From IMG/VR virus record IMGVR_UViG_3300010259_000001, positions 2,040 to 66,039 of that record: a DNA stretch of 64,000 nucleotides; one strand, written 5' to 3'. The notes beneath the pieces are model-generated. The model worked only from the letters and a program-made list of their open reading frames with translations, was not told the DNA's origin and did not search any database. The position numbers and the translations under genes are program-made. The stretch is from a virus. Shown one piece after another: positions 1,067 to 35,665 of this stretch; positions within the stretch are counted from its first letter, which is position 1, and each line of letters starts with the position of its first letter.

Positions 1067-1113
1067 TGCTTAAAAATTTTTAGAGGGTTGAAAAAATTTA
1101 ATAACTTAGAAAC

Positions 1114-6716: not shown

Positions 6717-6773
6717 ATCTGTTACTTTTGTTATGTGTCGGCAAAGTTAAACCCTGCCGACACTTTTTCTCTG

Positions 6774-9700
6774 TTATCTATTGGGTTGCTGCATTGGGAT
6801 ATACTTCTGTGTGAAGCCCTGCATCACTGTACCAAGACTATTCATTGCGTCGGCGCGTGTAGAAGCATCGGGGGCTTCAAGCACTTTCACCATAGCCGAT
6901 TTATAGTCAAGGACTGCCTGTCTGCACAATGCAGCTTCATCGGGTGTCTTGGCTCCAAGATAGAACTTCACTATCTTATTGAAATTGCCATCCATCTGCT
7001 TGAACATCTGATAAGTTGCAAAGGCGTTGGGGTCGCTCTGTGCTTCTGCCATCAGTTGTGCTGCCTCCACATAATCGGTCTTCGCCATTTTCTTGGCTTC
7101 TTTCACCTTGGCATCAACACCCTTATACACTTCCTCGTATTGCAGGTAGGCTTCGTTCACTTTGTCATCGCCCATCTGCTCGGTGCGTTCTTTGATGGTC
7201 TTGTTTGCCTTGTCGGTAAACTTCTTGATGCGCTCCTCGTCACCCCATGACCAAGGAGAGAAGAAACGACCACGCTTCACCTTGAACTGGGCATAACGCT
7301 CTGCAAGTTGTGCAGGGGTGTACTTGCTCACTTCGTCACCGCTCAAACCAACCTCGTCGAAATACATCTTGTCGATTTGGCTCTGCGGTACTTGCAAGAT
7401 GCGAGAAATACAGATGATTGCCTCGTGTGCCAGTGTTGGGTCGTCACCACAAGCGTCCATGATAGACAGGGCTACGTCGGTAATGCTCTGTGGGTTCACA
7501 CCGAGACCTGCTTGAACAATGAGGTTAATCATGTCATTCAGTGCCTCTGTGTGCTGACCATTGCCCAATTTTTGGAACGCTGCCATGATGTCGCTTGTCA
7601 GCGGCATGTCCTTACTCAGATAGGCAGGGTTACCCTCACCAGTAAGCATCATCTGTCCTGCTTGGCTCATAAGGTCGCCACCTGTCAGACCCTCGACACT
7701 GCCAAATGTGGTATGCGCCCAAACATCATCCCACATCTTCTGCTTCTCGTCTTCATCATCGCCGAACAGCAGGTATGGCAGATATGCACCCAAGTTCCAT
7801 GCAAGCTGCATAATGTAGCCGAATGTGGCAACGCGCAGGGTATCTTTCAGCAACTGCCGTCTGAACTTGCGCTTGGCAACCTGCTCCTCACGTTGCCAAT
7901 CAGCGTCTGACCAATTACCGTCTGTTTGTGGCTCAATACCCTTGTCACGCAACAGCTGCTTTGTCATAAACTCGATGCTTCCTGCTCGCCCTCCCGGTGT
8001 GAGATTGTGCTTGAAGTTACGGAGTGCATCATGCAACTGTCGCTGATAAGACATAGAGGCATTGCGGAACACTGTGAACAACACGGACAACCAAGACCTA
8101 TCAACCTGCATCGTCGAGGTAAATGCACCCTCGCTTGACTGCTGGGTCTGATTGTAAAGCACCTCTGCATCCTGCACGGCTTTCTTCTCTGCGTCGGCTT
8201 CGCTGTAACCATCACGCAGGTATTGGGCAAGGCGTGTCTGATACATCGAATGTGCGCCGATGCTGACAGTAAGAGCATCGACAAAAGCATTAGGAGACAT
8301 ACCTGCACGGCTTGCAAGTTGCATGAGGCGTGTGCGCCACATCTTCCAGTCCATATCTGATTTCAACAGGCGTGGGTCGCCACTCATACGGCTACGCCAA
8401 CGCTCGCTGAAGATTGGCAGATGCTCCATGCTCCACTTCCATGCTCCAGCAGGGTTGGCAATGTTCCTCAACAAGTAGTCGGTTCTTGCTTCGGGTATGT
8501 ATGCCGGCATGGAAAGGAACTGCTTTAAGGCTGTAAACATTCTGAACGACACCTTTGCTGCCGTTACACCCTTGGCGAAGTTCACTGCGGCTTCATCCAA
8601 CTTGGTACGCGGCGGTCTGTAGGTTCCTGCTGCCATTTGGCAAACGTCGTTAAATTTCTTCCACAACTCTTTACCACTGCCGTAGATGGTAGTCATGTTC
8701 TGAACTTGGTTACGGAAACGCTTGTAGGTGCGCAGCGTGTTGATGTCGCGGTTAAACTCTGCAAAGGCGTTCCAGTGTTCCATCTGTGCCACATGGTCAA
8801 GTATCACGCTCAATGCGTCTGCACCTGTAATGTCAAGGGCAAGGGCATTGCGTCTGCGCTTGATAATGCTGCCAGTAGCGGTGCTGATGCCGTCACTCTT
8901 GTCGGGATTGTCAAGGTCTTCGGGCTTATCGGCACGGGCATTGGCAAGTATCTTCAATGGGAAGTAATGCTCAATAGCGGCCATGGAAGCACCGAACATT
9001 CGCTTGTGCGTCTCGTTGTACTCGTTGCGCGTCTGCACAAGGAACTCGTCTTGCAGCCAGTCGGCAAGTTCTATCAATCGTGGGTCAAGCACTTCTTCGA
9101 TGTCTGCCACATTCTCCTCGGTGATACCCATCTTGCGCAACTTCATACGTCCGTCAAGCATCTTGTTCACAATGTAGATATACATGAGGTTGCCTTGCGT
9201 CAGTTCGCGCTCCTGCATTTCACCACCGTTCCAAAACGACACTGTGCCTTTTGGCAGTTTGCCGACACTACGGATAAGGTCGCCCCACGTCTTCACCTTG
9301 CCACCGAACAACTCTGCTGCTTTGGCATCAAGGATGGCGTATTTGTCGCGCACACCGTTTATTTCTTGCTGACGTGCATCAATCCAGCCTCTCATGAAGC
9401 GGTTATACAGGTAGCCCTCGCCGTTGGCACTCTTGCCTCCGAACATTCTCAACATCTGGTCAAAGGTGGCGAGAGGAGCAAACAGGAACGATACAAATGA
9501 GTTGTTGACGAACTTGTCAGCAAATGTCGGCTTATAATGTTCGTCGCTCGGTCTGCCCTCCATGTCGCTGTTGGCATTGTGCTGTATCTCGCGGATGCGC
9601 TGTTTCTCGGCTTCCTTGAAGTCCTTGGCGTTGGCAATGCTCTCGCGGAGGCTGTCAGACAACCTGCCTACAAGGTCGAAGTAACTCTGCGCTCTCTCAA

Positions 9701-12700
9701 TCTTGTTCTGACGGATAGCCTCTTGCAGACTGGCAATGTACTGGCGGTAACTGTCGGTGGCACGGTCGCGCTCGCTGGCATCGTCATGTGCCTGTTTGAT
9801 TTCCTCACGCAGTTTGCGCTCCTCTACCTTGCTGTCCTTGATGTTCTCGGCATACTCCAGTGCAAGTTGCAGTCCTGTGTACTCCAATGCTGCTTCATCG
9901 GCTACTGCCACATCGCTGCTGCCCATACGCTGCTGTGCCTCGCTGATGGCTTCCTCGATGTCGGTCTTCTCCCATCCGCGTGTCTTCTTAAACACTTTCA
10001 TGGTGTGCGCTCCGGCTGGGTCGAGTTGACCTTGCACCTCAACACCTCTTGCATCTACTTTGCTGCCTCTGATGGCTTCAAGTTCGTGCAGGGTGTCCTC
10101 GGCGTGCTTCAACTGATTGTCCACCATGATGTCCATCACCTTTTGCACATCACCCTCGATGTCATTGTGTCCTACGCTGTTCTTTACGGCTGCAAGCAAG
10201 CGTTTCACTTCCTGCTGAGTCAGTCCGTTCAGATAGCCGTTATTCATCAGCACACGCGCAAGGTCGGCGACACGTTTCACGGTGGTCATGTCAAAGGTAC
10301 GCTGGAGGCTCATTGCCTTGCGCAAGTCGGAGAGGTTGCCACCGATGGCACGCATTGCATCATTGCGCAACGTCTTGTTGTCACGATGATTGTTAGCCAG
10401 TCGGGTTGCTGCTGCCGTGATACGCTCCTGCAAACCTAAACTTTGGTCGTTCCAAATGTCTTCCGTCTCGTCCGGGTCACGGAACAAATCGGTACTTTCG
10501 TCGGCAATTTTGCTCTCATCAAGAATTTTTTTGCCACTATCGTATGACTTTTCAAGATTATTTAGTAACTTTACACCGCTCACGAATACATCAGAAACGT
10601 TTGAGCGACCATTAGGAGTGTTGGATTGTTCATCCAGCACTTCTATTTTTGTAACCTCGTAGGTATAGTGCCCATTCGCTTTCTGTGGGTTCTCGTATTC
10701 TTTCATCGTGGTCTTTACACGATATATTTCATCACCTATCCTTACTGCGGCAGCGAAACGGTGCATTAGGATACCTTTATTAAATCCATTGTCCCACTTA
10801 CGTTCACCATCTTTTTTCTTAATGTCGGGGTGTTCTTCAATCTCAATACTCTCATTGATAACCTTATCCAACTTATCCATGACAGCCGCATGAACACCGA
10901 TATTATCACTGTCACTTGCATGATTTGCAGCCTCTGTCAAAGACTTCGGACTAATTACATAGTCAAAAGTTGCTCCAAGGTTGTCATAATGCAATGATTT
11001 CAATTCACGTTTTTTCCCGTCACCAAACGAAGAGTATCTATCAATAGCGGCATCACGTGCTTGTGTTAGAACATCTCGACCTTGATATTGGTGACGAGGA
11101 ACTTCAACGACTTTGAATTTCGCGCCATTAAGACCAGGCATAACCGTTCCTCTGTTTTCAACGGCTCGTCTCTGACGCGCCTTGAAAGTCTCGGGAGCAT
11201 CACCCATGTTGTAACGCGCCTCATCAGTCAACCCAAGTTCCTCACGCTTCACGATGTCACGCGCAAGGTCAATTGGGTGTTCCTTGCCACGCTCCAAACG
11301 CTCCTTGCTGCGCCACAAGATGTAACGCAGTTCGTTGTCGCCAAGTTCAAACCACTTTGGCAACTTCAACGATCCAAGGAACTTGTCAAGCAATCTGCGG
11401 ACGGTGGCTTTGATTTTCTGCCATAAGGTACGCTCGCCCTCGCTGAACTCCTCAAACGGTTTCTCTGCCATGCGTCCAAACAACTCGTCAACAGCGGTGC
11501 GTCTGTGCTGCTCGTAACTCTTGGCACGCTTTCCGTTCTTGGTCGTATCGTCGATAAAGGCACGACCTGCAGCATCATCAACGCCTTTTTTCAAGTCGTC
11601 GCGCAAATGCTGATAGGTCTCGTCAAGGAACTCGTCATAGTTTTCTTCACCGACAAGTTCACGCAAACCCTTATGGGCAATAGTCTCATGCCCGACACTG
11701 GCTTTCACATCGTCAATGTTTTTGTTGTTGTCAAGAACGATGTTCACCTGTCCTGTGGCTGTGTCATACCAGCCTTTGGACTTGCGCCTACGCTCTTGCA
11801 CCGCTGCATTGGGGTGTGTGATTTCGTTCACGTCCTCAATGATATTGATGTCCGTATGCAACTTCTCACCCATCTGCTGAACGGCACTGCGCATCATGTC
11901 GCGGTCTTCCTGCATGGTACGCTTCACCTTGGCGTTAAGTGCTTCCACCTGTTTGTCAGTGATGGCACCAGCCTGTCGCTGTTGAGGCTCACGACCTGCG
12001 GCTTCTACCATTGCATCAACCTCACTCGGTTTAAGAATGCGGTTTACTTTCATGGCACCAGTGATAACCCAAGGGTCTGTGTTCGGGTCGGGATTGGTGC
12101 GATACCTGTATGAGCCGTTTTCGGGCAGTCGTGGCAGACCTGCAAGCGAGTGTTGGAACTTTCCGCTTGCGTTCATGCCGTAACTCATGGCTTCCTCTTG
12201 GTAGTCCACATCGTTCGCATACTCCACCTCTGCCCACACAAAGTTTGCAGGGAACAACTCGCGCTGTCCTGTTTCGGGGTTCATGCGGTTGAACTGGAGT
12301 GCATAAGGTATCTCGCCCAAGTGCCAACCGGGACGGTATGCCAACTTGCCGCTACCTCCCTGTGTTCCCTTGCCACCTGCCTTAACCTGCTGGCGACCTG
12401 TCTTTGTAACACCTGCAACTGGGGCGGCATCTGCATCAAGCCATACACCCACTGGGGTAGCCTCACCGTTCGGGTTTGCTACCATAGGAGGATAAAGTTT
12501 GCCATCTTTCAACACAAACACCTTATAGCCGATACCTGTCTTTGTAGGTGGCTCGTCCTCGCGGATGCGGTACTTTGCGGTGTCCTCTGTTACATCGTCG
12601 CTGTCTTCGTCAGAAAGTTGTACGCCCTTTGCAGCTTCAACAGAAGCATCCATTTCGGCATACTTGGCTTCTTTCTCTGCCATTTCCGCTTTCATCAGTT

Positions 12701-18700: not shown

Positions 18701-21700
18701 ATGCCAGTTGGTCGTTCACCTTGTCGATAGCATCGTCAATGTTCTTTGCAAGGTCGTTTACTTCTCGCTCACTTCTTGCAGACGGGAGTTTACTTTTGAC
18801 TTCGCTTGCAATAGTTGCTGCTTCGCTTGCAAGAGCCTCTGTATTTGCTGCGACTTCTTGCTCTGTTTCTTTTCTTTGCTCATTGCGTTCTTGTTTTAGT
18901 TTGTCGGTTGCCTCCTTTGCCTCACGCTCGGCTGCTTGTTCGCGCACGATTTGTTCAGCGGTGGCAACAATATCCTTTGCACCCTCTTTGTCGAAGTTCA
19001 TCACGTCAAAGCTGCGGACTTCATCCCAAGGGGTCATGTCTTTCTCTATGTCTGCCATTTCGGGCAGGTCGCGTGCGCCGTTGTAAAGTGTCTTGACGTA
19101 TGGGCGTATGCCCTCACCGAGTGCTTCGATGAGGTTCTTGGCAAACTCTCCGAACTTGCGTGCGCCGTGCTTCAGCATGAGGTAACTCATTTCTACACCG
19201 ATGGCAAACGCTTCGGGGTCAAGACCCATGTTCAACTGACCACCAAGTTTCATGCGCAAACGCCTACGAAGTTCCTCAAAGCGTTCTGCATCTGCATCGT
19301 CAACCCACTTGCTCTTGGCTTTCTTCTCCTCCTGCTTGGGCTGCTCCTGTTCCGATGAAGCCGTATTTTGTTCCGAAACGTCCTCTTTTTGTTCTGATTG
19401 TGGCGTTTCCTGTTCCATTGGCATAGCGTCCTGCACCTCGTCGGCATTGGCTTTTGTGCCGTCGGTGAATGTATATTCCACCGTTCCGTCCTTATGGTGC
19501 GCCACAAAGATGTCCTTGTTGGCATTGTGCTTCACGGAGAAAACGCGGTCGCCACCGTGATACTCCTTGACAGGCTTCGGTAGTTCTACATTCTCCCAAT
19601 CCGTAACCTCATACAGGACTGATGCCAAGCCAACATCAAGCGTTACTTGTCTTGCATCTGCATCATGGATGGTTGCTTCCTTGCCTTTATACATAATCTT
19701 GTCACCCAATTTCACGCCATGAGCGGCAAGAGCATCGTCGCGCTCGGTCTCTGCCATCTTCTTGCGGATGTCGGAAAGGAACTGCTCGTAGGCACGCCGC
19801 TTGCCGTTGAGGTTGGCAAGTGCGTCAAAAGCCTGTGGAATGGTCTCACCTGCTGCGGTAGCCATGCCGTCCTCAATGGTCTTGGCACGCTTGCGCAGGT
19901 CGCGGATAACATTTTCAATACTCTTGATATTGGGGATTGCTCCACGCTTACGGTCATTGAGTACGTTGCGAAGTCCTGTCAGTGTCTTGTCATAGACATC
20001 ATCCTCGCGGTCATAGTCATACTGTGGAGTGGTCTGTGGCTCTTGCTCTACCTTGATGGTTTCACTGGCGGCTTTCATATCTGCCTGGTCGGTGACTGTT
20101 GCCACGTCTTCTACAGACAAAGGCTGTGCATCCTGCATGGCTTCCTCATTGCTCAAAGCCTCTGCAAGTGCTTTCGCGCTGTCCTCGTCACGCATCATAA
20201 AACCGCTTTTCTCTCTATCCCACCAACCACGGCTTTCCTTTGCGAGTTCCTTGCCGGCACGAATTTCATCTTTCGACAACTCTCTGCCGAAAGTAACAAG
20301 GTGCATCGGTGTGGTCTTACCTTTCTTGTTGGTGTAGGTGGTCGGCTCGATGGAGTAACCTGCGGTCTGCTGCTCACCAAGTTGGGTGTCGCCAAGAGGC
20401 TTCACGCTGCTGTACTCCGCAAACGGCTTCGTCTTGCGGTGGCTGCTGTCAATCCACTTCTTGAACTCCTCTTTGCTGACAGGAGTAATGGCACCAAGTC
20501 CCTGCCAACCATCTTCATAGTTGGAGAGGTATGCCTTTCGTGCGCTCTCGATGTCGGGGAAACCATACATCACCTTGTGTTCGTCAAAACTGCCGTCCTT
20601 GTTCACTTGGTCAACGACAAACACATCACCCTGCGAGGGGTCTTCGGAGAAGAACACGTCGATGTGGTCGCCGTCAACGCCCTCTGTGCCGCGAATGTAG
20701 CCGTAGGTGTTCTGCATTTCCTGCTCCCACTGCTTGCCACTGGCATCAGTACCACGACGAACAGAACCTTTCGGGTTCTCGATGGTAACGTCGTAGCCAT
20801 CAATCTTGACATGTCCTTTCTTGTAGTTACCAGCCTCTTTCTGTGCTTCGGTAGGCTCGGTATTGGTTTCCTGCTCGGCTGCTGCCAATGCTGTTTGCAC
20901 GGCATTAGGCTCTGCTTCTACTGGTTCGGTAGCCTCAACAGGTTCTGCCTCTACTGGTGCAGGTTCGGCACTGGGTTCTGCTGTTGCTTCGCCATCTGTG
21001 CTGACTGCTGGAGGAGTGCCATCTTGTTGAACGCTCTCTGCTTTTCTGCGCTCCACGGCTTCTTCCCGGGCTGCTTCGATTTCTTTTCGTTTGCCATAAT
21101 TCTCGTTGATAAATGTGATTACGTCTCGCAAGATGTCCTCGCGGCTCTGAATGCCACCTGCAAACAGGTCAGTCTGTCCAGATGCGCTTTGTCTCGCGTT
21201 GTTATTGTATAATTGGAGTGTGGTCTTCAGCAAGGTAACGCGCTTGTCATTCAGCACGTCAGCAAGCATCAGCATGGTTGCATTATTGAAGTCTGCTACG
21301 GTCTGCAACTCGTCGGGGTCAGCGAACAACACACCTTGACGTGCGTATGTGCTGACTATCTCGCCGTACTTGGCACCGCCTTGTCGTGCATCAAAGCACA
21401 ACTTCACGGCATCTGCCAACTCTCCCTGCAAAGACCAGTCGCCACCAAGGGCAATGTTATCGACAATCTCACCAAGTGCGGTGATAACGGTCTGACGCAT
21501 GGCTGGCTCTGCCGTGAGCATACGCACTACTTCGGGGTCGCTCTCAAAGGCTTTGCCGATGAGCATATTTTCCAAAAACTCACGACCGACGGCACTCAGT
21601 TTCTCCTGTCCGCGAATACCGTCAACCATTTCTGCCAACTGTGCCTGTGGAACAACACCGGCATTGTGCAGGTCATAGACTGCGCCAAGGCTCGCTTCTG

Positions 21701-24700
21701 CATCGTTGTAGAAGTCGCCCAGCGTGTCATAGCCGTTGATGGTTCTGACAATACCCTTGAAACTATCGTCGCTCACGGTCTTGCCAAGTTTCACGGCTTG
21801 CTCGGTCTTGTTCTGCGACTTCATTTCCTGCTGGTTGAACTTCGCAAATGTCTCTGCCGTGTATGGCATTGCCTCATCGGGAACGAATGACACACGCGGA
21901 TGCTGCATCGCTCCCACCTGTTCAGCAGTGAAGCCAAACTTGGGCGCGTACTCTTTCAGATAGTTCACGTATGCGCCATCGGTATTGTCACGCGCTGCCA
22001 GTTCACCGGCCATGGTACGACCGTTGCCCGATAACACAACACCATCGTTGCTGACAACTGGAACACTCTGCAAGGCTCGCTGGTCATATTGACGCGCAAT
22101 GCTCTGTGTATGCTCCTGCGCGTCGTGGTCTCGCTCATAGTCGCGGTCGTTCACGCTGTTGTCGTTGGCATCCATCGGGAAACCGTCAGTCTTCTGCCAT
22201 GTTTCGGGATTGTGGCTTGGGGATGATGCACCACTCTCATGCAGGAGGTAATGACCTTTCAGCGGTGTTCCGTCGGGTAGCATGATTTCGTCGCGGTGTC
22301 CGTCAACCTTTGTGGCATTGTTCCACTTCTCGGTAATGGCTGGCATCGGGTTCTCGTTGCCAACTGCCTTACGCTCTGCCTCGGCTTGCTTGCGTGCCTC
22401 ATATTCGGCTTGTGCCTCTGCAACGGCTTCATCATGACGCACGGCATCCTCTGCCGCTCTGCGCTCGTTCTCCTCACGCTGTATATCGTTCTGAATGTTG
22501 CGCACTTGCTGCCAGTAGTCCAATACGCGCTGCGCCTCGTCAATCTTCTCTTGACGTTTCGCCTTTGCCTCGTTGTACTTCTTGATGCTGGTACCAACTC
22601 TTGGCATCTGTGCCGACTTCGCCTTGACAAGTGCGCTCTGCGCTGCCTGTGTCTGCGCTGCAATAAATTCGTTACCCTCACTGCGTGATAGTCCTGCCTC
22701 GTTGAAAATGTAGGCATGGGCGCGTTCGGGTGTGGTGGCTTGCCAGTCTTCTTCACCATCCTCACCAACAGGCATAGGCTCTGCCGTTGGCTGCTCAGTT
22801 GGTTGTGCAGGTGCTTCGGCTGGTTGTGTCGGTTGAGGCTCTACCGTCTGCACTGGCTCCTGTACTTGCTGTGGTGCGACTTCGGCTTGCAGCTCAACAG
22901 GTGGGGGAGTAGTCTCTACCGTTGCAGGTGTTTCAGCGGAGGCTTCTTGTACTGGTGCTGCTTCGGGCTGCTGTGGTGCAACATGGCTCACAACTTTATC
23001 AACGAGTTTGTCTTCATGGTCGTGCTTTACCTCGCCGTCCATGAAATACTCGATGATGTTTCCGTTTGCGTCGGGAACAAAACTGCCGTTCTCATAGCGC
23101 ACACGTCCCATCACCATTGCAGGTTTCTCGCTGCCGTCCTCGTCGCGGATAGTCAACTCCATGTCGGCTGTATAGTCGGCTGGAGCACCTGCCACACGTC
23201 CGTCTGCCTGTGGCTGTGCTGGTGTTGAGGCTTTGGGCTGCTGTGCTGCTGGTTCTTCGGTGATACCATGACGCTGACGATAGTCTGCAGATGCTTTCTC
23301 GTCTCTGATGCGCTGTAACTCTGAACGCTGGACGGTTGCTTGTGTGCCGTCGCCAAGTGCTACGGTGATGTTCTCACCGTCTGCATCGGTAGCGACAACA
23401 ACGGCTTCCTCACCAGTAGGCAATACCAACTGCTGACCAGGTACAAAGCGAACAGTGCCTTGCGCCTCGTCAATCTGTGCTTGAACGTACTCCTGTCTGC
23501 TACGCTCGATGTCGGCTTCACGCTGTTCTGCGGTTGTCACCTCACCAAGAGAAGATATGCCGGTATCAGCGGACGGGTCTATCTGCTTGCGCTCACCAGT
23601 GGCAGGGTTATATACTACGACAATGTTGTCACTCGATGCCTTGTCAACCATTGAGCCGTCGGGCATCATCTGCACATTGCCGTCAACGATATACACTTGT
23701 TGGTCGTTACCCTCGCTGTCTTTCTCTTTGAGAATGGCAGGGCGCAAAGAGCCGTCAGTGTGCTGCATCTGCTTGGTCTGCTCTCGCTGCTGGGCTACCA
23801 TGTAGGCTGCATCCTCGTTGATGCGCTGCACTACACCGTTCCATGCTTCCTGTGCTTCCGCATTGTTTGGGTCGGCAAGTTCTATGGCGATGTCCTGACG
23901 CTCCTGCGCGTCGGCTTCGTGTCCTCTGTTGAAAGCTGCGCTAACAGGGTCGCCCTGCTCACCATCGTCAATACCGAGTAATGCGGCTATCTGACTGTTA
24001 CTTGTTGGTGCATCGGGGTCAACAGGTGCTTCGCCACGTTCTGCGGCTTCCTCCTGCTTGCGCTTCACGTCGGCAAACAGGCGGTTGGCATATTCGTCAA
24101 CGGCTTTCTGCTCCTGCTCGCTTCGGCGGTTGCGCTCCTTGCGGATAGCCTTGTCAACATCAATACCAAATTCATCATTGATGGCTGCGCGTACTTCTGA
24201 TGAACCGTATTTGTCGCCAAGACCGTTGTAGGCATTAAGGATTTTCTCTGCCCACTCTAATTCAACTTCGTTCATTGCTTCGGTCTTGCGCTTCATGAGG
24301 TCGAACAAAAGGTTGGCAGGTGCGCCTGTTTCCTCTGCAACACTCTCGCAAGCCTCATACATGCGCTTGTTGTCGCCTTGCCAGTCATAATAACGCTCAC
24401 CCACGTCAAAGCCGTTCAACTCTGCTTGCCTGTTGATGCGGTTTGCTTCAACGTCTGCACGTTTCTTGTCACCAAACGAGCGACTGGTAATCACACCATT
24501 TGCACCAAAGGACTGCACGGTGTAACCTGTCACGTTGCCGTCTGCGTCCTTGTCTTCAAGGATGCTTGAACCCATGACGGTTGACATTGGCAGACCATGC
24601 CCTGTGAGGTAGTAATACATCTTGGCACGCGCCGCCTCGCTGACGCTGTTGTCTGTCATCAACTCGACAAAGCGGTTATATGGTAGTTCAGCCTGTCCGT

Positions 24701-26864
24701 CGCCTCCCTCAATCATTCTGCTTGCATCGGTGGTGGTAGGACGAGCCTTGTCATATTCTTCTTTGGCTTCGGCATAACGGCTGTATTCCTCCGTGAGGTC
24801 TTTCAAGTCGCCGTACCCTCTGCGTTCCAGTTCTTTCTTCTCGTCCTCAGTAAGTGCAAGGTCACCGCGTCCGTCAAGAATGGAACGTAAACGTGTCTCA
24901 AAACCAACCTTGCCGTTCTTGGAGCGTGCAAGGTCGTAGATAACACGCGGTGCAGACTTCAACAGATGTTGTGCCTTGAAACCTGCAATCATTGCCATGT
25001 TATCAGTCCAAACGTCCATCAGCGCGTCACCACGACTATTGCGAAGTTCCTCAATCTTGGCTGCACGTTCCTGTTCGTCTGCAATATAGTTGGGGCTGGT
25101 CTCATCAGACAGTGAGTTGATGAGGTCGCCATATTGTCCGTAGGTGTTGATTATCTCCGGCACGGCAAATATTGTTCCCTCTGCCACTGTACCTACACCA
25201 AGTTCACCGGCACGGATGCCCATCTTGCCAACGGTGCTTTCGGTGGCTCTGACAAGTTTGTCGCTTACATTGCCGAGGTATGGAGCAATTACACCAGTTA
25301 CTGCACCCATCATCAAGCCGTGTCCTGCACGCCCTGCCACATTGCCAAACGAGAAACCGTCCTTGCGTTCACCTGTTTCCTCGTCAATGTAACCTCCCCA
25401 CTTCATTTGGTCGAGAGCTTCGCTTCCTGCCTCGTATGTGCCGAAGTTCACAGCACCACCAATGGCTCCACCAAGCATACGACCTCCGAGCGTGGTGCCA
25501 AACTTACGCATGGCTGCTTCGCCAATCATCTTGCCACCGAGCCAAGTTGTGCCTTTAACGGCTGTACCACCTGTACCTGCAGATGCCCAAGTGAGAGGGT
25601 CTAAGGCAAAGCCTGTAACAGTTCCTGCAATACCTGCGACTTTATGTCCTTGCTTCTCAAAGCGTTGTTCTGCATCTTCGCGTGCTTCCCAGTCGCCTGT
25701 TGTTCCTGCTTGCGCTCTTGCCGCTGCTTGCATCAATGTTCCCATTGCGTTACCTGCGGCAACCTTGCGGATGAAGTATTCTGCTGCATCTTTAGGGGCG
25801 TTCTTGGCTACTGCAAGTTCATACATACGGCGGTCGCTCTGTTCACGCGCCATTTCCGTTGCTGCTTGTTGCAACTGCTGTTCTGTGGCTTGTGGGTAAC
25901 GGTTCTTCAGTGCGCCGTACATATCTTCGATGATGGACTGCTGTTTCTCCTTGCCAAGCATGTTCCAAGCATCATCAGCCATACGTTGCAGGTCGTGGTA
26001 TTTCAGATGAGTGGCAAATGCCTTGATGCCGGTGTCAACATTATCAGCACCCAAACCTCCTGTTACGCTCGTACCCTCCGCAGCACCACGGAGGAAATTG
26101 CTCCATGATGGTTTGCTACGCTCGTCCAAGTATCTACCAAACTCCTCATTAGATTTGTCCTCGGCTTGCTGCCATACCATTGCAGCAGCATTGTCGGGGT
26201 CGTACTTGTCGATTGATGCACCCACACGACGCTCAAAGTCGTTCTGTATGCGCTTCTCGCGGTGTCTGCGTCCCTCCTCGGTTGTGGCTTCCCACTCGTC
26301 ACGGTATTTCAGATTGAGGCGCGACTGCTCCAGCGGTGTTGCAACCTCATCGCCATGCGTCGTGTAATACCTGCGCTCCATCTTTCCGCTTTCCGGGTTG
26401 AACTTCACTTCGCTGGTCTTGCCCAAAGTGTTGCCCTTGCGGATATTCTCCATGCGAGTATTGAAGTCCTGCTGCGACTGCTTAACTTGGCGCATAGTCT
26501 CGTCCAACTGCATCTGCATACCCATCTTCTCCTGCCAAGTAGGTTGCCATCCACCTTGCTTTTGTGGCTGTTCATCCTGTTTGGGCTGTGTCGATGTGTT
26601 CACGGTCGGGTTTACTTGCCCTGTAGTCTGCTTGACTACCGGCTGTGCTGGTGCCGGTGCCGGCTTCTGCACTGGCTGAACCATCATACTTGCGAAATCG
26701 TCAGCACTACCAACATTCAAGCCTAAACTACGGCTCTTTTGGTAGTACCAATCGCGGTCTTCTTTATTGTCAAGGCTCTTTGTGAAGTCGTCGTAACTGC
26801 CAGTGTTTACGCCATTCTTCTTCATTTGCTCATAGAGCCACTTTCTATCGTCGTCATTCCACAT
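6774..26864 (-). CDS. giant multidomain (polyvalent-type) protein, 6,696 aa; probable virion-packaged anti-defence cargo
   Basis: Single open frame of 20,091 nt (ATG 26864 verified, TAA 6774). Modules separated by Pro/Glu/Gln-rich linkers; see the sub-features. I checked the residue-to-nucleotide mapping at two anchors: NVPF at 17193-17204 and DEAH at 14634-14645. Confidence 0.9.
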   Translation of the reverse strand: MWNDDDRKWLYEQMKKNGVNTGSYDDFTKSLDNKEDRDWYYQKSRSLGLNVGSADDFASMMVQPVQKPAPAPAQPVVKQTTGQVNPTVNTSTQPKQDEQPQKQGGWQPTWQEKMGMQMQLDETMRQVKQSQQDFNTRMENIRKGNTLGKTSEVKFNPESGKMERRYYTTHGDEVATPLEQSRLNLKYRDEWEATTEEGRRHREKRIQNDFERRVGASIDKYDPDNAAAMVWQQAEDKSNEEFGRYLDERSKPSWSNFLRGAAEGTSVTGGLGADNVDTGIKAFATHLKYHDLQRMADDAWNMLGKEKQQSIIEDMYGALKNRYPQATEQQLQQAATEMAREQSDRRMYELAVAKNAPKDAAEYFIRKVAAGNAMGTLMQAAARAQAGTTGDWEAREDAEQRFEKQGHKVAGIAGTVTGFALDPLTWASAGTGGTAVKGTTWLGGKMIGEAAMRKFGTTLGGRMLGGAIGGAVNFGTYEAGSEALDQMKWGGYIDEETGERKDGFSFGNVAGRAGHGLMMGAVTGVIAPYLGNVSDKLVRATESTVGKMGIRAGELGVGTVAEGTIFAVPEIINTYGQYGDLINSLSDETSPNYIADEQERAAKIEELRNSRGDALMDVWTDNMAMIAGFKAQHLLKSAPRVIYDLARSKNGKVGFETRLRSILDGRGDLALTEDEKKELERRGYGDLKDLTEEYSRYAEAKEEYDKARPTTTDASRMIEGGDGQAELPYNRFVELMTDNSVSEAARAKMYYYLTGHGLPMSTVMGSSILEDKDADGNVTGYTVQSFGANGVITSRSFGDKKRADVEANRINRQAELNGFDVGERYYDWQGDNKRMYEACESVAEETGAPANLLFDLMKRKTEAMNEVELEWAEKILNAYNGLGDKYGSSEVRAAINDEFGIDVDKAIRKERNRRSEQEQKAVDEYANRLFADVKRKQEEAAERGEAPVDPDAPTSNSQIAALLGIDDGEQGDPVSAAFNRGHEADAQERQDIAIELADPNNAEAQEAWNGVVQRINEDAAYMVAQQREQTKQMQHTDGSLRPAILKEKDSEGNDQQVYIVDGNVQMMPDGSMVDKASSDNIVVVYNPATGERKQIDPSADTGISSLGEVTTAEQREADIERSRQEYVQAQIDEAQGTVRFVPGQQLVLPTGEEAVVVATDADGENITVALGDGTQATVQRSELQRIRDEKASADYRQRHGITEEPAAQQPKASTPAQPQADGRVAGAPADYTADMELTIRDEDGSEKPAMVMGRVRYENGSFVPDANGNIIEYFMDGEVKHDHEDKLVDKVVSHVAPQQPEAAPVQEASAETPATVETTPPPVELQAEVAPQQVQEPVQTVEPQPTQPAEAPAQPTEQPTAEPMPVGEDGEEDWQATTPERAHAYIFNEAGLSRSEGNEFIAAQTQAAQSALVKAKSAQMPRVGTSIKKYNEAKAKRQEKIDEAQRVLDYWQQVRNIQNDIQREENERRAAEDAVRHDEAVAEAQAEYEARKQAEAERKAVGNENPMPAITEKWNNATKVDGHRDEIMLPDGTPLKGHYLLHESGASSPSHNPETWQKTDGFPMDANDNSVNDRDYERDHDAQEHTQSIARQYDQRALQSVPVVSNDGVVLSGNGRTMAGELAARDNTDGAYVNYLKEYAPKFGFTAEQVGAMQHPRVSFVPDEAMPYTAETFAKFNQQEMKSQNKTEQAVKLGKTVSDDSFKGIVRTINGYDTLGDFYNDAEASLGAVYDLHNAGVVPQAQLAEMVDGIRGQEKLSAVGREFLENMLIGKAFESDPEVVRMLTAEPAMRQTVITALGEIVDNIALGGDWSLQGELADAVKLCFDARQGGAKYGEIVSTYARQGVLFADPDELQTVADFNNATMLMLADVLNDKRVTLLKTTLQLYNNNARQSASGQTDLFAGGIQSREDILRDVITFINENYGKRKEIEAAREEAVERRKAESVQQDGTPPAVSTDGEATAEPSAEPAPVEAEPVEATEPVEAEPNAVQTALAAAEQETNTEPTEAQKEAGNYKKGHVKIDGYDVTIENPKGSVRRGTDASGKQWEQEMQNTYGYIRGTEGVDGDHIDVFFSEDPSQGDVFVVDQVNKDGSFDEHKVMYGFPDIESARKAYLSNYEDGWQGLGAITPVSKEEFKKWIDSSHRKTKPFAEYSSVKPLGDTQLGEQQTAGYSIEPTTYTNKKGKTTPMHLVTFGRELSKDEIRAGKELAKESRGWWDREKSGFMMRDEDSAKALAEALSNEEAMQDAQPLSVEDVATVTDQADMKAASETIKVEQEPQTTPQYDYDREDDVYDKTLTGLRNVLNDRKRGAIPNIKSIENVIRDLRKRAKTIEDGMATAAGETIPQAFDALANLNGKRRAYEQFLSDIRKKMAETERDDALAAHGVKLGDKIMYKGKEATIHDADARQVTLDVGLASVLYEVTDWENVELPKPVKEYHGGDRVFSVKHNANKDIFVAHHKDGTVEYTFTDGTKANADEVQDAMPMEQETPQSEQKEDVSEQNTASSEQEQPKQEEKKAKSKWVDDADAERFEELRRRLRMKLGGQLNMGLDPEAFAIGVEMSYLMLKHGARKFGEFAKNLIEALGEGIRPYVKTLYNGARDLPEMADIEKDMTPWDEVRSFDVMNFDKEGAKDIVATAEQIVREQAAEREAKEATDKLKQERNEQRKETEQEVAANTEALASEAATIASEVKSKLPSARSEREVNDLAKNIDDAIDKVNDQLALLGYYEAEPVESDFNEAYGYMRNAEKKAVKNVTELFKTLTKELGISDPVVYDTKGKKQKSVTANIAPAGGDVTMRFMLNRDKGVELYIDFMLEPDYENNRDNLVLKGIMFRPERNLPNGGRDYLRANNFFPVDVTMPQMLQGIRSVCQEWLPAEDYVAMAQRIAAENAGNQQEKPSKERKSKKKSESLQEQTIPDLFSGLFSEDLKPTSNEQEVHVQPRTSTTERERGHQREQNEPLGESKQNEDERPDAGGVVRRSGNDTKSDTAGGSRVSEPSDGKQNVKPAKPEPAPLAESERKNTHNNHAERGTDYAPKGTSARIEANIKAIETMQRLIESGEPATPEDMSVLRKFSGWGGLGAAFKEKVSSGDSGYNPRLRDDYQPSNPINARLRELLSPEAYEAANMSRNSAYYTPAPVIDAMWDVARAMGFRGGNVLEGSAGIGSIIGLMPTDMSERSNIHAVEIDETTGNILSLLYPDANVEVKGFEKTFVPNGSVDLAITNVPFVTGLRVMDETGDKDLSRKFHDIHDFCIAKNVRKLKEGGVGIFITSSGTLDSPNSAKLRTWLVNEGGADVVGAFRMHNQTFGGTGATSDIIVIRKRVNGRKSANAIDVSGTLPIRTVKYNTGETKRGSSEVIVKDLALDVNKHFVEHPEDMAGEMAFAFEKGDTYRATSKALYPSPSINQEQRLSEWAQQFKDMDWDKAEERESQQVVYEDLGEDVKEGSMLLDSDGNLCLAQRGKAVPINVNANKVKGHTKAECFNAYKAIKDALADVLEYQTTHSDDSGLQQRLAKLNKAYDSFVKTYGHLNKNTSISFLRSDMDYPSIAALESVSETGDKSGKRIVTYGKTDIFSRRVVETESEPKPTTIKDGIIASIYLNGRVDVPYIAEQLNMSDSDVRQQIIESGLGFENPTTTEMEVSYEYLSGNVREKLRQAQENNTDGRYDANIKALERVIPMNIPAHLIEFTLGSSWVEPKLYEDFVKERTGLDVKLTNAGGTWIMSEPYYTNTEQNKAMGVISEKCDKTILGHELIKAAITCKSISVTKTISTGYGSSKTTETIVDKEATMACANKIDEIRQDFKDWARGKMQGDPEMSERMERVYNELFNNSVPKEIPDDFVPEHFGGAATVVNGKPFKLRPHQAKAVIRATTQPLMLAHEVGTGKTYTLISTAMEMRRLGTARKPMIVVQNATVGQFVASAKALYPNAKILTLEDADRNAEGRRNFYAKIRYNDWDMIVVPQSVFERIPDSEERQIRFVEDKVEEKMMVLEKMREAANDDRDPVLRQAQRELDQLNDELNDLKLALQERKSGGNTEKDEKREAKTRQNAMVKAQEMLDRETDDVANFDDMGIDALLIDEAHEYKHLGFATAMQRGVKGVDPSYSKKSQGVYLKTQAVLENKNGKNVVFATGTPISNTAAEIWTFMRYLMPADTMREYGIYYFDDFVRNFGNIQQMLEFSTNGKYKENNRFAGYVNLPELVRIWAGVADTVLTREAGGVSDKIPKMDGEKAQDIYLPQTKALRGVMKFVKDQLDDYEKMSGKEKKENSHIPLVMYGIAKAAAVDARLVLEDAADEPNSKTNEAVRQTLRSLEDTKEYNGTVAIFADNYQNKATGFNLYEDIRKKLIDAGVPEAQVVVMKSGMSIKKKLEIFDKVNRGEVRVIMGSTFTLGTGVNIQERLHTLIHVDAPNRPMDYTQRNGRILRQGNLHNEWGIPVRVLRFGVEDSLDVTAYQRLKTKGAIADSIMEGKKMMSNSMENRVLEEEQDLFGDITAQLSGSQYALLKNQVEKEVKKLEARKKQWEADQTYVHNQKPRLKALIKDSEERAKRNKEALARVEAAKNDGITIGKMKFPSLDAMTDYLKDYNSKQREQQEQVRTASGYKSEAKSDLTVSVGGFDFHIHRVISKEQKQEKGQLSLSFFSKTQMTYSCPELGLEDVPVDGQRLKSALEDILENVLSGDDFREKAEYADRAAERYKGELQQVEARDGKPFEYADELKQAKEKLAEYEELMKAEMAEKEAKYAEMDASVEAAKGVQLSDEDSDDVTEDTAKYRIREDEPPTKTGIGYKVFVLKDGKLYPPMVANPNGEATPVGVWLDADAAPVAGVTKTGRQQVKAGGKGTQGGSGKLAYRPGWHLGEIPYALQFNRMNPETGQRELFPANFVWAEVEYANDVDYQEEAMSYGMNASGKFQHSLAGLPRLPENGSYRYRTNPDPNTDPWVITGAMKVNRILKPSEVDAMVEAAGREPQQRQAGAITDKQVEALNAKVKRTMQEDRDMMRSAVQQMGEKLHTDINIIEDVNEITHPNAAVQERRRKSKGWYDTATGQVNIVLDNNKNIDDVKASVGHETIAHKGLRELVGEENYDEFLDETYQHLRDDLKKGVDDAAGRAFIDDTTKNGKRAKSYEQHRRTAVDELFGRMAEKPFEEFSEGERTLWQKIKATVRRLLDKFLGSLKLPKWFELGDNELRYILWRSKERLERGKEHPIDLARDIVKREELGLTDEARYNMGDAPETFKARQRRAVENRGTVMPGLNGAKFKVVEVPRHQYQGRDVLTQARDAAIDRYSSFGDGKKRELKSLHYDNLGATFDYVISPKSLTEAANHASDSDNIGVHAAVMDKLDKVINESIEIEEHPDIKKKDGERKWDNGFNKGILMHRFAAAVRIGDEIYRVKTTMKEYENPQKANGHYTYEVTKIEVLDEQSNTPNGRSNVSDVFVSGVKLLNNLEKSYDSGKKILDESKIADESTDLFRDPDETEDIWNDQSLGLQERITAAATRLANNHRDNKTLRNDAMRAIGGNLSDLRKAMSLQRTFDMTTVKRVADLARVLMNNGYLNGLTQQEVKRLLAAVKNSVGHNDIEGDVQKVMDIMVDNQLKHAEDTLHELEAIRGSKVDARGVEVQGQLDPAGAHTMKVFKKTRGWEKTDIEEAISEAQQRMGSSDVAVADEAALEYTGLQLALEYAENIKDSKVEERKLREEIKQAHDDASERDRATDSYRQYIASLQEAIRQNKIERAQSYFDLVGRLSDSLRESIANAKDFKEAEKQRIREIQHNANSDMEGRPSDEHYKPTFADKFVNNSFVSFLFAPLATFDQMLRMFGGKSANGEGYLYNRFMRGWIDARQQEINGVRDKYAILDAKAAELFGGKVKTWGDLIRSVGKLPKGTVSFWNGGEMQERELTQGNLMYIYIVNKMLDGRMKLRKMGITEENVADIEEVLDPRLIELADWLQDEFLVQTRNEYNETHKRMFGASMAAIEHYFPLKILANARADKPEDLDNPDKSDGISTATGSIIKRRRNALALDITGADALSVILDHVAQMEHWNAFAEFNRDINTLRTYKRFRNQVQNMTTIYGSGKELWKKFNDVCQMAAGTYRPPRTKLDEAAVNFAKGVTAAKVSFRMFTALKQFLSMPAYIPEARTDYLLRNIANPAGAWKWSMEHLPIFSERWRSRMSGDPRLLKSDMDWKMWRTRLMQLASRAGMSPNAFVDALTVSIGAHSMYQTRLAQYLRDGYSEADAEKKAVQDAEVLYNQTQQSSEGAFTSTMQVDRSWLSVLFTVFRNASMSYQRQLHDALRNFKHNLTPGGRAGSIEFMTKQLLRDKGIEPQTDGNWSDADWQREEQVAKRKFRRQLLKDTLRVATFGYIMQLAWNLGAYLPYLLFGDDEDEKQKMWDDVWAHTTFGSVEGLTGGDLMSQAGQMMLTGEGNPAYLSKDMPLTSDIMAAFQKLGNGQHTEALNDMINLIVQAGLGVNPQSITDVALSIMDACGDDPTLAHEAIICISRILQVPQSQIDKMYFDEVGLSGDEVSKYTPAQLAERYAQFKVKRGRFFSPWSWGDEERIKKFTDKANKTIKERTEQMGDDKVNEAYLQYEEVYKGVDAKVKEAKKMAKTDYVEAAQLMAEAQSDPNAFATYQMFKQMDGNFNKIVKFYLGAKTPDEAALCRQAVLDYKSAMVKVLEAPDASTRADAMNSLGTVMQGFTQKYIPMQQPNR
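13515..15317 (-). other. SNF2/DEAH helicase domain (aa ~3850-4450)
   Basis: LRPHQAKAV; Walker A MLAHEVGTGKTYT; LLIDEAHEYKHLG; VFATGTPISNT; helicase-C GSTFTLGTGVNIQ...DYTQRNGRILRQGN. Confidence 0.8.
16875..17777 (-). other. N6-adenine DNA methyltransferase domain (aa ~3030-3330), COG4646/P1 DarB-like
   Basis: LRKFSGWGGLGAAF; AYYTPAPVIDAMW; motif I NVLEGSAGIGSIIG; motif IV DLAITNVPFV (NVPF variant of NPPF/Y). Confidence 0.75.
20430..20843 (-). other. family-I inorganic pyrophosphatase-like domain (aa ~2008-2145)
   Basis: TIENPKGSVRRG...NTYGYIRGTEGVDGDHIDVFF...DQVNKDGSFDEHKVMYGF parallels the PPase EIPKGS / YGFIP...DGDPxDV / DxKV blocks. The signature has His where Pro/Glu is usual. Confidence 0.6.
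20907..20978 (-). repeat. in-frame tandem EP(V/A)EA linker repeats
   Basis: Encodes AEPSAEPAPVEAEPVEATEPVEAEP. The DNA shows imperfect ~15-nt tandem units (ctctgcttctactgg / ctctgcctctactgg). Confidence 0.7.
21765..22352 (-). other. ParB N-terminal-like domain (aa ~1505-1700)
   Basis: VPVVSNDGVVLSGNGRTMAGELAARDNTDGAYVNYL resembles the ParB/Srx G-x-x-R-x-x-A core. Confidence 0.5.
22995..23702 (-). other. three short beta-rich SH3/Tudor-like modules (aa ~1055-1290)
   Basis: Repeated pattern such as QVYIVDGNVQMMPDGSMV..., VRFVPGQQLVLPTGEEAVVVATDADGENITVALGDGT..., MVMGRVRYENGSFVPDANGNIIEYFMDGE. This is an assignment by eye only. Confidence 0.25.
25155..25652 (-). other. Gly-rich hydrophobic block of giant protein (aa ~405-570)
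   Basis: AGIAGTVTGFALDPLTWASAGTGGTAVKGTTWLGGKMIGEAAMRKFGTTLGGRMLGGAIGGAVNFG...GLMMGAVTGVIAPYLG. This is glycine-zipper or membrane-insertion-like composition. Confidence 0.4.
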
Positions 26865-28052: not shown

Positions 28053-28553
28053 TTATCCAAGTCCCATGCCACTGGCAAAGCCGTTAGCGGCTCCACCGAT
28101 AGCGTTACTTACCATGCCGAAGCCATCAACCTTACCTGCTTCGAGTTCGCGCAACTTCTCGTCAAGTTGGTGCTGTCTCTCGCGGTACTGACCCTCAATC
28201 TGGTCTTTGCGCTGTGCGCCAGCAACTGCAATCTGACTGGTAGCGTCTGACAACGCTTTTGCATTAGCCTCTTTCGCTGCTGCTGTACTCTCCTCGGTGC
28301 CACCCATCACGGCTTGCACTCCTGCCGACTGCTGGTTACGTCGCCTTATCATGTCTGCTGTCTGCGTGAGAATGGCTTGCGCGTCGGCTCGCTGGGTTGC
28401 GTCCTCATTATACCTGCGGTCGTACCAGTCTTGGTTCTCGCGCTTCTGCTCGTTAATCATGTTACTCATTTTCTTCAGCATCTTGTTCTTGCTGATGCCT
28501 CCGAAGATGCCACCAAGCGCACCTGCTGCGCCTCCTATAATTCCGCCTAACAT
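28053..28553 (-). CDS. glycine-zipper protein, first gene of head operon
   Basis: 166 aa, ATG verified. N-terminus MLGGIIGGAAGALGGIFGG and C-terminus AIGGAANGFASGMGLG flank a charged helical core. Confidence 0.65.
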   Translation of the reverse strand: MLGGIIGGAAGALGGIFGGISKNKMLKKMSNMINEQKRENQDWYDRRYNEDATQRADAQAILTQTADMIRRRNQQSAGVQAVMGGTEESTAAAKEANAKALSDATSQIAVAGAQRKDQIEGQYRERQHQLDEKLRELEAGKVDGFGMVSNAIGGAANGFASGMGLG

Positions 28554-35663: not shown

Positions 35664-35665
35664 CT

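Follow-up and report, generated by a model that had tools for sequence, protein, structure and literature searches.

The class of phage-type polyvalent proteins was defined by Iyer, Burroughs, Anand, de Souza and Aravind in 2017; the InPase and DdrB-ParB domains are confined to this class and have been reported as associated with phage virions, InPase even as a fusion to portals, and a zincin-like metallopeptidase (MPTase) is its commonest, not obligatory, hub domain (PMC5512222). Two giant polyvalent proteins have been found in virions so far. One, gp69 of Burkholderia phage JC1 (4,515 aa), was the second-highest-scoring protein of CsCl-purified virions, with 51 unique peptides (PMC9144972). 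The other, gp47 of the Stx phage phi24B (2,811 aa), occurs abundantly in virions but is not visible in the reconstruction, and an ejection function has been proposed for it; its authors describe its organisation inside the capsid as an open question (bioRxiv 10.64898/2026.04.10.717836). The virion-borne DarB protein of phage P1 (2,255 aa) is in essence an EcoKI/TaqI-like N6-adenine methyltransferase with a superfamily 2 (SF2) helicase fused to its C-terminus; its entry into the capsid needs DarA, Hdf and DdrA, and it protects DNA in cis from type I restriction. Here we describe a gene of 6,696 codons (the giant gene) on a stretch of 64,000 nucleotides of virus DNA (the window; positions 2,040 to 66,039 of IMG/VR record IMGVR_UViG_3300010259_000001). 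By its domain content the product is a phage-type polyvalent protein, since ddrB-ParB, InPase, methyltransferase, SF2 helicase and LPD3 domains sit in one open reading frame (ORF). Its relatives suggest a layout of conserved end modules around exchangeable payloads, of which the DarB-like part is one.

The giant protein and its relatives

The gene reads as a single frame from an ATG to a sole stop at its end (ORF listing and translation) and takes up 31.4% of the window and 30.4% of the source contig of ~66 kb. A preliminary description of this DNA had likewise placed an uninterrupted frame of 6,696 codons over about 31% of the window, just upstream of the portal and terL genes, and had assigned it to the polyvalent proteins; both points hold. 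A frame of this length might arise through an error of assembly or annotation, or as a decaying pseudogene of fused fragments. In line with such an origin, the full protein has no companion in its 90%-identity cluster, many database entries are fragmentary, and the gene is split in its nearest relative in ENA (L004; ERZ4902850 contig_82781; ~96-97% nucleotide identity). When IMG/VR was scanned with the methyltransferase-helicase core as query, 80 loci were returned, 45 of which have the orthologous ORF wholly inside the fetched stretch; orthologue counts given below use these 45. All 45 ORFs are complete and unbroken, with lengths of 4,664-6,938 aa and the module order kept, and regular expressions for the InPase, methyltransferase and helicase motifs match in every one of them. 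Near end-to-end matches include proteins of 6,702 aa (L007, 96%), 6,652 aa (L005, 93%) and 6,720 aa (L066, 94%), and the window gene is exceeded in length by orthologues of 6,938 (L023), 6,805 (L078) and 6,752 aa (L079). The identical protein was called in two assemblies (contigs of ~66 kb, SRR5190360 and JGI), and an orthologue of 5,553 aa is encoded by BKO1-TP3, a phage that has been cultured and completely sequenced. As to the fragments, most begin at internal positions of the giant protein, and one that was checked on its contig sits at the contig end. The split in L004 comes from a deletion of one nucleotide (CCATTC to CCATC at ~9618, corresponding to nt ~11231 and codon ~3744 of the giant ORF, window ~15634), which breaks the protein just ahead of the N-lobe of the helicase into pieces of 3,692 and 2,830 aa by the source calls, the second being lengthened to 2,923 aa in the ORF listing. 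With the frame open over the junction, the split resembles a gene-caller artefact, but frame analysis traced it to this deletion, present in the L004 sequence ~380 nt upstream. An artefactual origin of the giant ORF is thus highly improbable.

Megablast of the giant ORF against GenBank phages gave zero matches; relatives surface only at the protein level. Relatives that are 93-96% identical overall fall to 24-83% identity in short patches (hot spots in Table 1), pointing to recent patch-wise recombination within the gene.

The ParB-N-like, pyrophosphatase-like, N6-adenine methyltransferase and SNF2/DEAH helicase domains named in the preliminary description were all recovered by profile searches. 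The ddrB-ParB model PF18763 scored 37.1 bits against a Pfam gathering threshold (GA) of 27.6 (E 3.9e-9), with its core at aa 1590-1654 and the sequence GNGRT at aa 1613. In the InPase region, aa 2018-2149 (window 20418-20813) matched residues 636-763 of chain L of PDB entry 9b41 ('gp19 Portal') at E 1.7e-31. This chain is a phage portal of 765 aa whose C-terminal 130 residues are the InPase domain, which shows that InPase can be part of a portal protein; it is also the sole solved structure with sequence similarity to the giant (PDB sequence searches, both halves). The methyltransferase is 31% identical to that of P1 DarB (E 5e-21) and contains the sequences LEGSAGIG (motif I, aa 3155) and NVPF (motif IV, aa 3221); just before it, at aa 3073, lies a GxGU-type, LPD36-like GWGGLG sequence, although a Pfam search of aa 2990-3110 at E ≤ 1 gave no match. 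The helicase has motifs I, II, III and VI at aa 3878 (GTGKT), 4074 (DEAH), 4126 (TGTP) and 4411 (QRNGR), and its score with SNF2-rel_dom is 24.8 bits against a GA of 24.9. Judged by these residues, the catalytic motifs of both enzymes are intact. The methyltransferase-helicase pair (the dyad, aa ~3020-4480) is collinear with P1 DarB in three BLASTP blocks (5e-21, 5e-14 and 8e-7), the helicase blocks being 24-28% identical, and the profile phrog_10089 ('DarB-like antirestriction') spans aa 1958-5157, with E 0 for the second half. The dyad makes up ~1,500 of 6,696 residues, about 22% of the chain.

In the last ~2,200 residues the preliminary description had recognised nothing firm. This statement had to be revised, as four elements were found there: a phrog_30118 domain, a module with the motif HEXXXH, an LPD3 domain and an all-alpha C-terminal module. 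The phrog_30118 domain is 65-84% identical among otherwise unrelated polyvalent proteins; a profile search of the PDB with aa 4776-4965 found no significant match, and the AlphaFold2 (AF2) model is poor there. In the HEXXXH module, H5059, E5060 and H5064 are invariant and D5081 nearly so among 32 sequences of ~30-37% identity; the module occurs in nearly all orthologues and holds the only HE...H of the entire giant protein. The predicted secondary structure begins with a helix and goes on to three short strands, with another helix among them; a helix interrupted by the motif and the helix of D5081 follow, the predicted local distance difference test score (pLDDT) of the block being ~71-90. The zincin core of the metallopeptidases of polyvalent proteins has been described as a three-stranded sheet with one N-terminal and two C-terminal helices, and one clade of these enzymes is distinguished by HEXXXH together with a bent helix (PMC5512222 section 8). 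The module is best called a candidate peptidase that could fit this variant clade by motif and model. It found nothing significant in Pfam, in a profile search of the PDB (A1) or in a Foldseek search with its AF2 model; a match to Peptidase_M76 (E 0.13) in three of the 32 homologues was not counted as support. The LPD3 region coincides with a predicted alpha+beta domain (model residues 510-670, aa ~5250-5410; block pLDDT mostly 75-91). Foldseek of the model of aa 4740-5470 against the PDB gave nothing at E ≤ 0.001; the best matches, non-significant NTF2-like folds (E 0.05), presumably fall on this region.

The C-terminal module had no match in Pfam or PHROG and no fold in the PDB (Foldseek best E 0.6). 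Its AF2 model (aa 5497-6696; mean pLDDT 73, predicted TM-score 0.62) retrieved 66 structures from BFVD at E ≤ 1e-3, the best at 5.6e-33 with a TM-score of 0.55 over ~1,180 columns. These are mostly later segments (_2/_3) of large proteins of uncultured phages, annotated with ART-PolyVal, MuF_C, LPD, nuclease and acetyltransferase domains. Among GenBank phages the module was present in one record only. By phmmer against 1.84 billion cluster representatives (50% identity) it matched 1,210 clusters at E ≤ 1e-3, of which 571 passed E ≤ 1e-30, and in nearly all of the matches listed it stands at the C-terminus. The idea that the module might exist as an autonomous protein was dropped, the stand-alone copy that was checked (P0259) being cut by a contig end.

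Modules were counted in the 146 newly returned representatives among the best 150 of the 1,210 matches. At least 4,000 aa were reached by 106 of these proteins, at least 5,000 by 71, at least 6,000 by 20 and at least 6,696 by six, the maximum being 7,091. The length of the window protein, which had been thought exceptional, is therefore not so: the same slot holds up to 6,938 aa in orthologues and proteins sharing the C-terminal module are longer still. The HEXXXH module was found in 85 representatives, InPase in 66, the N-terminal module (aa 110-960) in 35 and ParB in 32, and the methyltransferase or the helicase in only 15-16, about 10%. Other relatives carry as payloads PBECR nucleases, ART-PolyVal, Kinase-PolyVal, LPD13/23, MuF_C, RadC, C5-methyltransferase or zeta toxin. 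Since few relatives with the C-terminal module carry the dyad, the giant gene, as far as these counts reveal it, is a set of conserved end modules with exchangeable payloads and not simply an enlarged DarB. By the same comparison the dyad is an optional payload and not the part that defines the family; the protein contains a DarB homologue without being "a DarB", the dyad being absent from most proteins with the conserved ends. The search for orthologues and module shuffling that had been suggested at the outset was thus productive, with shuffling evident both in the orthologues and in distant relatives.

The ends themselves are not uniform. In every IMG/VR orthologue ~970-1,480 aa follow the HEXXXH module, and these fall into two sequence types: type A (n = 14, the window included) and type B (n = 31, the BKO1-TP3 type included). 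Aligned with hhalign, the two types are homologous in the last ~105 aa only (probability 93.6%, E 2e-7). At the other end, the duplicated motif noted in the preliminary description is present at aa 8-28 and aa 37-58, and variants of the doublet (K.LY...GYD.G.yeeF) open most orthologues, even those with otherwise unrelated N-termini. The tandem motif may be a capsid-targeting signal. It was found on none of the other ORFs of the window, and a targeting signal common to several window proteins was for this reason rejected.

Proposed packaging and injection, and alternative explanations

The giant gene sits within the head-gene block: on the minus strand the order is integrase, 166-aa ORF, 386-aa ORF, giant ORF, portal and terL. 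A location directly upstream of a P22-type portal recurs in BKO1-TP3 and for a relative of 3,575 aa in a related prophage, in which a methyltransferase, a helicase, RadC, the HEXXXH module and the C-terminal module are combined. JC1 gp69, the virion protein mentioned above, is a tblastn match of aa 3000-5955 of the giant. From gene position and from the virion proteomics of homologues and analogues we infer that the protein may be packaged in the head and injected. The explanation that we favour, and hold to be rather better than an even chance, is that of a phage-type polyvalent protein loaded into the head and injected as an early bundle of anti-defence and takeover enzymes. The protein would be synthesised late, alongside portal and terminase; one or a few copies would enter the procapsid beside the portal and leave via the tail before or together with the DNA. 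In the new host the DarB-like dyad would shield the incoming DNA in cis from restriction, mainly of type I, as in P1, while InPase and ParB would act early on nucleotides or DNA, InPase clearing pyrophosphate or signalling nucleotides and ParB serving as a nuclease or NTPase, as proposed by Iyer et al. The HEXXXH module, if a peptidase, might cut the chain into working pieces, in the head or after entry.

Size would be no physical obstacle to packaging, because the ~906 nm3 of one 749-kDa copy equal ~1.3% of the volume that the bare 66-kb DNA takes up. A mass of 749 kDa is about half that of the internal core of T7 or of four copies of the N4 virion RNA polymerase, and short-tailed phages such as T7, P22 and N4 need ejected internal proteins.

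It seems conceivable that the conserved elements at the ends (the tandem motif at one, the HEXXXH and C-terminal modules, including the last ~105 aa, at the other) form a delivery set for capsid targeting, portal docking or ejection. Being placed between payloads and C-terminal module, the HEXXXH module could separate the two. A more specific version, which we put forward tentatively and regard as doubtful, is that the HEXXXH and ~1,200-aa C-terminal modules, together with the tandem motif and the last ~105 aa, would constitute a delivery unit that docks chains of 3,500-7,000 aa inside the head, feeds them into the tail and out, and then cleaves itself off the interchangeable anti-defence payloads. 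If this were true, short-tailed phages with such a unit would carry a modular, evolvable "injected polyprotein" system.

The wide retention of the ends admits another interpretation, in which the ends are primary and the enzymes passengers: the giant would be a structural ejection (ejectosome or pilot) protein, forming a trans-envelope conduit with the gp14-like 166-aa and the 386-aa proteins encoded upstream. The structural block of the contig record, with neither a tape-measure nor a sheath call, comprises a P22-type portal, a faint SU10-like match for the major capsid protein (MCP) and one tail-like protein of 2,749 aa; the source phage is therefore probably short-tailed, as this interpretation would have it. 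The C-terminal and HEXXXH modules are far more widely kept than any payload, the N-terminal module includes a Gly-rich, mildly hydrophobic block, and phi24B gp47 has been proposed to build such a conduit (bioRxiv 10.64898/2026.04.10.717836). Moreover, the 166-aa ORF resembles T7 gp14: its match to PF24072 (T7_gp14) covers profile positions 5-161 of 187 with E 5.6e-4 and 20.3 bits, below the GA of 27, and an identical precomputed match is recorded for 36 of 120 close homologues. Profile searching of the PDB with this ORF gave no significant match, and the 386-aa ORF matched neither Pfam nor the PDB. Against a conduit, a hydropathy scan of the whole giant protein revealed no transmembrane-grade segment, and no detectable similarity to T7 gp15 or gp16, to P22 or other solved ejection proteins or, apart from the InPase match, to any solved structure was seen in sequence or fold (Pfam; PDB sequence searches; Foldseek against the PDB with the models of aa 4740-5470 and aa 5497-6696, at E ≤ 0.001). 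Orthologues have two largely unrelated C-terminal modules, and the match of the catalytic-motif expressions in all 45 of them suggests that the enzymes are selected for and not simply carried along. A conduit function as the primary role is therefore unlikely; it overlaps, however, with the head-loading and injection that we favour.

A number of observations weigh against head loading and injection. For the source phage and its close relatives, the case for packaging draws on gene position and on analogy. General scans, which included no dedicated search for DarA or Hdf, turned up none of the known capsid-targeting domains such as MuF, DarA and Hdf; the lack of similarity to known ejection proteins and the sub-threshold standing of the gp14 match count in the same direction, and the candidate metallopeptidase is called from its motif and predicted secondary-structure order only. 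Phage methyltransferases commonly act on progeny DNA, and a methyltransferase made late might just as well modify such DNA while still in the cell that produced it. The deletion in L004, finally, may be a sequencing error; if it is real, the truncation is tolerated and the phage can do without the intact chain. Several of these points would suit a multi-enzyme protein that is made late and never packaged, and that works in the cytoplasm of the producing cell on methylation or processing of progeny DNA or against abortive infection, its adjacency to the portal gene reflecting co-regulation: the sequence holds no proof of packaging, known targeting domains did not turn up, methylation of progeny by phage enzymes is common, and the split gene suggests that an intact chain is dispensable. 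Nevertheless, homologous and analogous giants have been found in purified virions (JC1 gp69, phi24B gp47), InPase and DdrB-ParB are reported as virion-associated, InPase even in fusion to portals, and conserved N- and C-terminal elements around variable payloads fit a delivery signal better. We thus consider a purely cytoplasmic role quite unlikely.

Other modules, neighbouring genes and the source phage

The positions of all modules and of the adjoining genes are compiled in Table 1.

Table 1. Modules of the giant protein and genes next to it, with positions in the protein (aa) and in the window (nt)
Feature	Protein (aa)	Window (nt)	Strand	Remarks
Whole giant ORF		6774..26864	-	6,696 codons, 749 kDa, isoelectric point 5.2; coordinates include the stop codon
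N-terminal tandem motif	1-60	26685..26864	-	RKWLYEQMKKNGVNTGSYDDF + RDWYYQKSRSLGLNVGSADDF, then P/Q/A-rich linker to ~aa 110
N-terminal module	110-960	23985..26537	-	Gly-rich, mildly hydrophobic block at aa ~400-560
"Small beta modules" stretch	1000-1300	22965..23867	-	23-44% identity in orthologues
P/E/Q/A/T-rich linkers	1290-1373, 1941-2010, 2480-2511
DdrB-like ParB/Srx-superfamily module	~1500-1950	21015..22367	-	PF18763 ddrB-ParB
Type-I inorganic-pyrophosphatase-like domain (InPase)	2006-2138	20451..20849	-	PF18823 2e-59, full profile
Stretch with conserved sub-modules (~aa 2500-2870)	2150-2890	18195..20417	-	phrog_14770; ends before basic low-complexity linker
DarB-type gamma-class N6-adenine methyltransferase	~3020-3340	16845..17807	-	phrog_11801, phrog_10089
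Methyltransferase-helicase connector	3340-3840	15345..16847	-	Pfam 38: PF28553 WH_1 (weak), PF28554 DUF8437; within phrog_10089 match
SF2 (SNF2/ResIII-like) helicase	3840-4480	13425..15347	-	ResIII 1.3e-7, Helicase_C 9.8e-11
Highly conserved ~190-aa domain	4776-4965	11970..12539	-	phrog_30118 1.1e-33
HEXXXH module	4985-5225	11190..11912	-	candidate zincin-like metallopeptidase
LPD3	5306-5394	10683..10949	-	PF18798 34.2 bits vs GA 27, E 3.1e-8
All-alpha C-terminal module, ~1,235 aa	5461-6696	6777..10484	-
Extreme C-terminal ~105-aa helical segment	~6558-6662	6879..7193	-	common to both orthologue C-terminal types
Patch hot spots	1-100, 2400-2600, 5200-5500, 6300-6400, last 100 aa	~26565-26864, 19065-19664, 10365-11264, 7665-7964, 6777-7076
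Tyrosine integrase		29421-30902	-	phrog_1
166-aa Gly-rich ORF		28053-28553	-	PF24072 T7_gp14 match below GA
386-aa ORF		26871-28031	-	phrog_13399; syntenic with BKO1-TP3 gp56
Portal		4743-6716	-	phrog_156 2.2e-94; PF16510 P22_portal; starts 57 nt past the stop of the giant ORF
terL		2628-4730	-	phrog_2 2.9e-16, phrog_24361 1.3e-12

In the N-terminal module the block at aa ~400-560, which the preliminary description had called Gly-rich and hydrophobic, is indeed rich in glycine (18-27%), with many invariant Gly and Pro residues in alignment A5; its hydrophobicity falls short of the transmembrane grade, and it was rejected as a membrane anchor. The module as a whole (aa 110-960) gave no signal in Pfam, in PDB sequence searches with profile A5 or for transmembrane segments. 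The "small beta modules" seen by eye in the following stretch found no more than sub-threshold Pfam matches, SH3/Tudor-like in kind (DUF4330 0.0034, Myosin_N SH3-like 0.037, DUF4537 0.089). Residues 2150-2890, without a match in Pfam, are 36-60% identical in orthologues, with a mosaic hot spot at aa 2400-2600. A Pfam run on ten module-sized tiles at E ≤ 1 newly found nothing beyond ddrB-ParB and LPD3, and NCBIfam yielded a weak DrmD helicase match only.

The stop codon of the 386-aa ORF lies 6 nt ahead of the ATG of the giant ORF on the same strand. The 90%-identity cluster of the portal has 675 members, Prevotellaceae metagenome-assembled genomes among them, which makes Prevotella the most likely host and the phage lineage a common one; likewise, the 5,078 homologues of the 166-aa ORF at E ≤ 1e-3 imply that the phage group is very abundant. 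The source phage is thus most likely a temperate, podovirus-like phage of ~66 kb with a host in the Prevotellaceae.

The window apparently represents 64 kb out of the contig of ~66 kb, and assemblies with it appear circularly permuted relative to each other (compared with L003). The gene for the MCP (511 aa, faint SU10_MCP match) appears cut at the window start. The tail-like ORF of 2,749 aa (55664-63913, minus strand; phrog_14959, E 0) is preceded by the MCP gene and two small ORFs, and its C-terminal part matches a "tail protein" family (phrog_5302); its true start seems to lie past the window end, as it measures 2,803 aa on the full contig. Relatives hold orthologues of 2,742-2,808 aa in that place, and this ORF and the giant gene together account for ~43% of the genome. 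A complete diversity-generating retroelement is present next to it, with a reverse transcriptase at 53881-55224 (minus strand; phrog_1423, 1e-90), a template repeat of 115 nt at 55375-55489, in the gap between the reverse transcriptase and the tail-like ORF, and a variable repeat at 55694-55808, in the 3' end (C-terminus) of that ORF. Differences between the repeats are confined to A positions of the template (minus-strand reading), the signature of adenine mutagenesis. The retroelement is directed at the giant tail or receptor-binding protein and not at the polyvalent gene. The plus-strand block 33342-49472 consists of non-structural genes, including one for a 475-aa SNF2-type helicase (36731-38158; SNF2-rel_dom and Helicase_C on the contig record), so that the phage has a second SF2 helicase apart from that of the giant protein.

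Significance and comparison with known systems

Proteins of the polyvalent kind are already known, and a cultured orthologue of the giant is in GenBank as DarB-like. No paper treating these giants of Bacteroidota and Prevotella phages was found in literature searches. Nor did we come across a description of the sizes reached in this gut family (up to ~7,000 aa and 30% of a genome), of the 1,200-aa C-terminal module, which matches nothing in Pfam or PHROG yet closes over 1,000 clusters, or of an architecture in which conserved ends are combined with swappable payloads and an HEXXXH module sits where the two meet. The family is very abundant in gut metagenomes, as the counts of portal cluster members and of 166-aa ORF homologues given above attest. 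The split into ends and payloads leads to concrete hypotheses on capsid targeting and processing, and the targeting, storage and tail passage of polypeptides of 0.3-0.75 MDa become testable, with BKO1-TP3 as a cultured relative. The phrog_30118 domain, the stretch at aa 2150-2890 and the N- and C-terminal modules are candidate anti-defence domains, and a virion-borne anti-restriction bundle could help to explain the host range of temperate phages of Bacteroidota.

As to the internal core of T7 (gp14-gp15-gp16), the 166-aa neighbour has the sub-threshold gp14 match, the giant itself being without a match to gp15 or gp16. Compared by description, phi24B gp47 is likewise a large polyvalent protein of a short-tailed phage, detected in virions by proteomics and unseen in reconstructions; unlike the giant, it has LPD5, LPD1, LPD38 and MuF-C domains and no DarB dyad, and it is 2.4 times smaller.

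The Lessievirus giants (JC1 gp69; Bcep22 gp75) are represented by PHROG 10089. Their genes, too, belong to a virion morphogenesis module, here of short-tailed phages of ~60 kb, that of JC1 taking up 22% of the genome (PMC9144972). The gp69 gene closes this module and is followed by the lysis genes (PMC9144972), whereas the giant gene is directly upstream of the portal gene. Identity to the giant is ~27-30% and extends over the dyad only; the giant matches positions 830-3583 of the 4,647 of PHROG 10089, leaving positions 1-830 and 3583-4647 unmatched, so that both ends differ.

P1 DarB has the same fusion as the giant, a gamma-class N6-adenine methyltransferase followed collinearly by an SF2 helicase, with NVPF as motif IV in both, and the GxGU motif of its N-terminal LPD36 may have a counterpart in the GWGGLG of the giant. 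The giant is 2.97 times longer, close to the threefold ratio estimated in the preliminary description, and has at least eight further modules, ParB, InPase, LPD3, HEXXXH and the large N- and C-terminal modules among them. No DarA, Hdf, DdrA or Ulx partners turned up for the giant, no search having been aimed at them. In P1 (L087, NC_005856) darB (5470-14022) adjoins the portal gene prt, the two being divergently transcribed; linkage of a DarB-type gene to the portal gene is thus common to P1 and the family of the source phage.

To the polyvalent proteins of Iyer et al. the giant is linked by InPase, DdrB-ParB, LPD3 and the dyad, by the linkage to portal and terminase, by mosaic evolution and perhaps by the HEXXXH clade (PMC5512222). 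The Pfam models of polyvalent domains, on the other hand, match neither the two large terminal modules (~850 aa at the N-terminus, 1,200 aa at the C-terminus) nor the phrog_30118 domain. Closest of all is gp55 of BKO1-TP3 (PQ571269; 5,553 aa, "DarB-like antirestriction"), an orthologue from a cultured temperate phage of gut Bacteroides that is not discussed in the paper describing that phage. It is 1,143 aa shorter than the giant, its N-terminal module is weakly similar, and its C-terminal ~1,000 aa are of type B, the last ~105 aa alone being detectably homologous. The integrase, two small ORFs, the giant gene and the portal gene are nevertheless found in the same synteny in both phages; the tandem motif, the ParB/InPase region and the HEXXXH module are common to both proteins, and their methyltransferase-helicase cores are 61% identical over aa 2839-4765.

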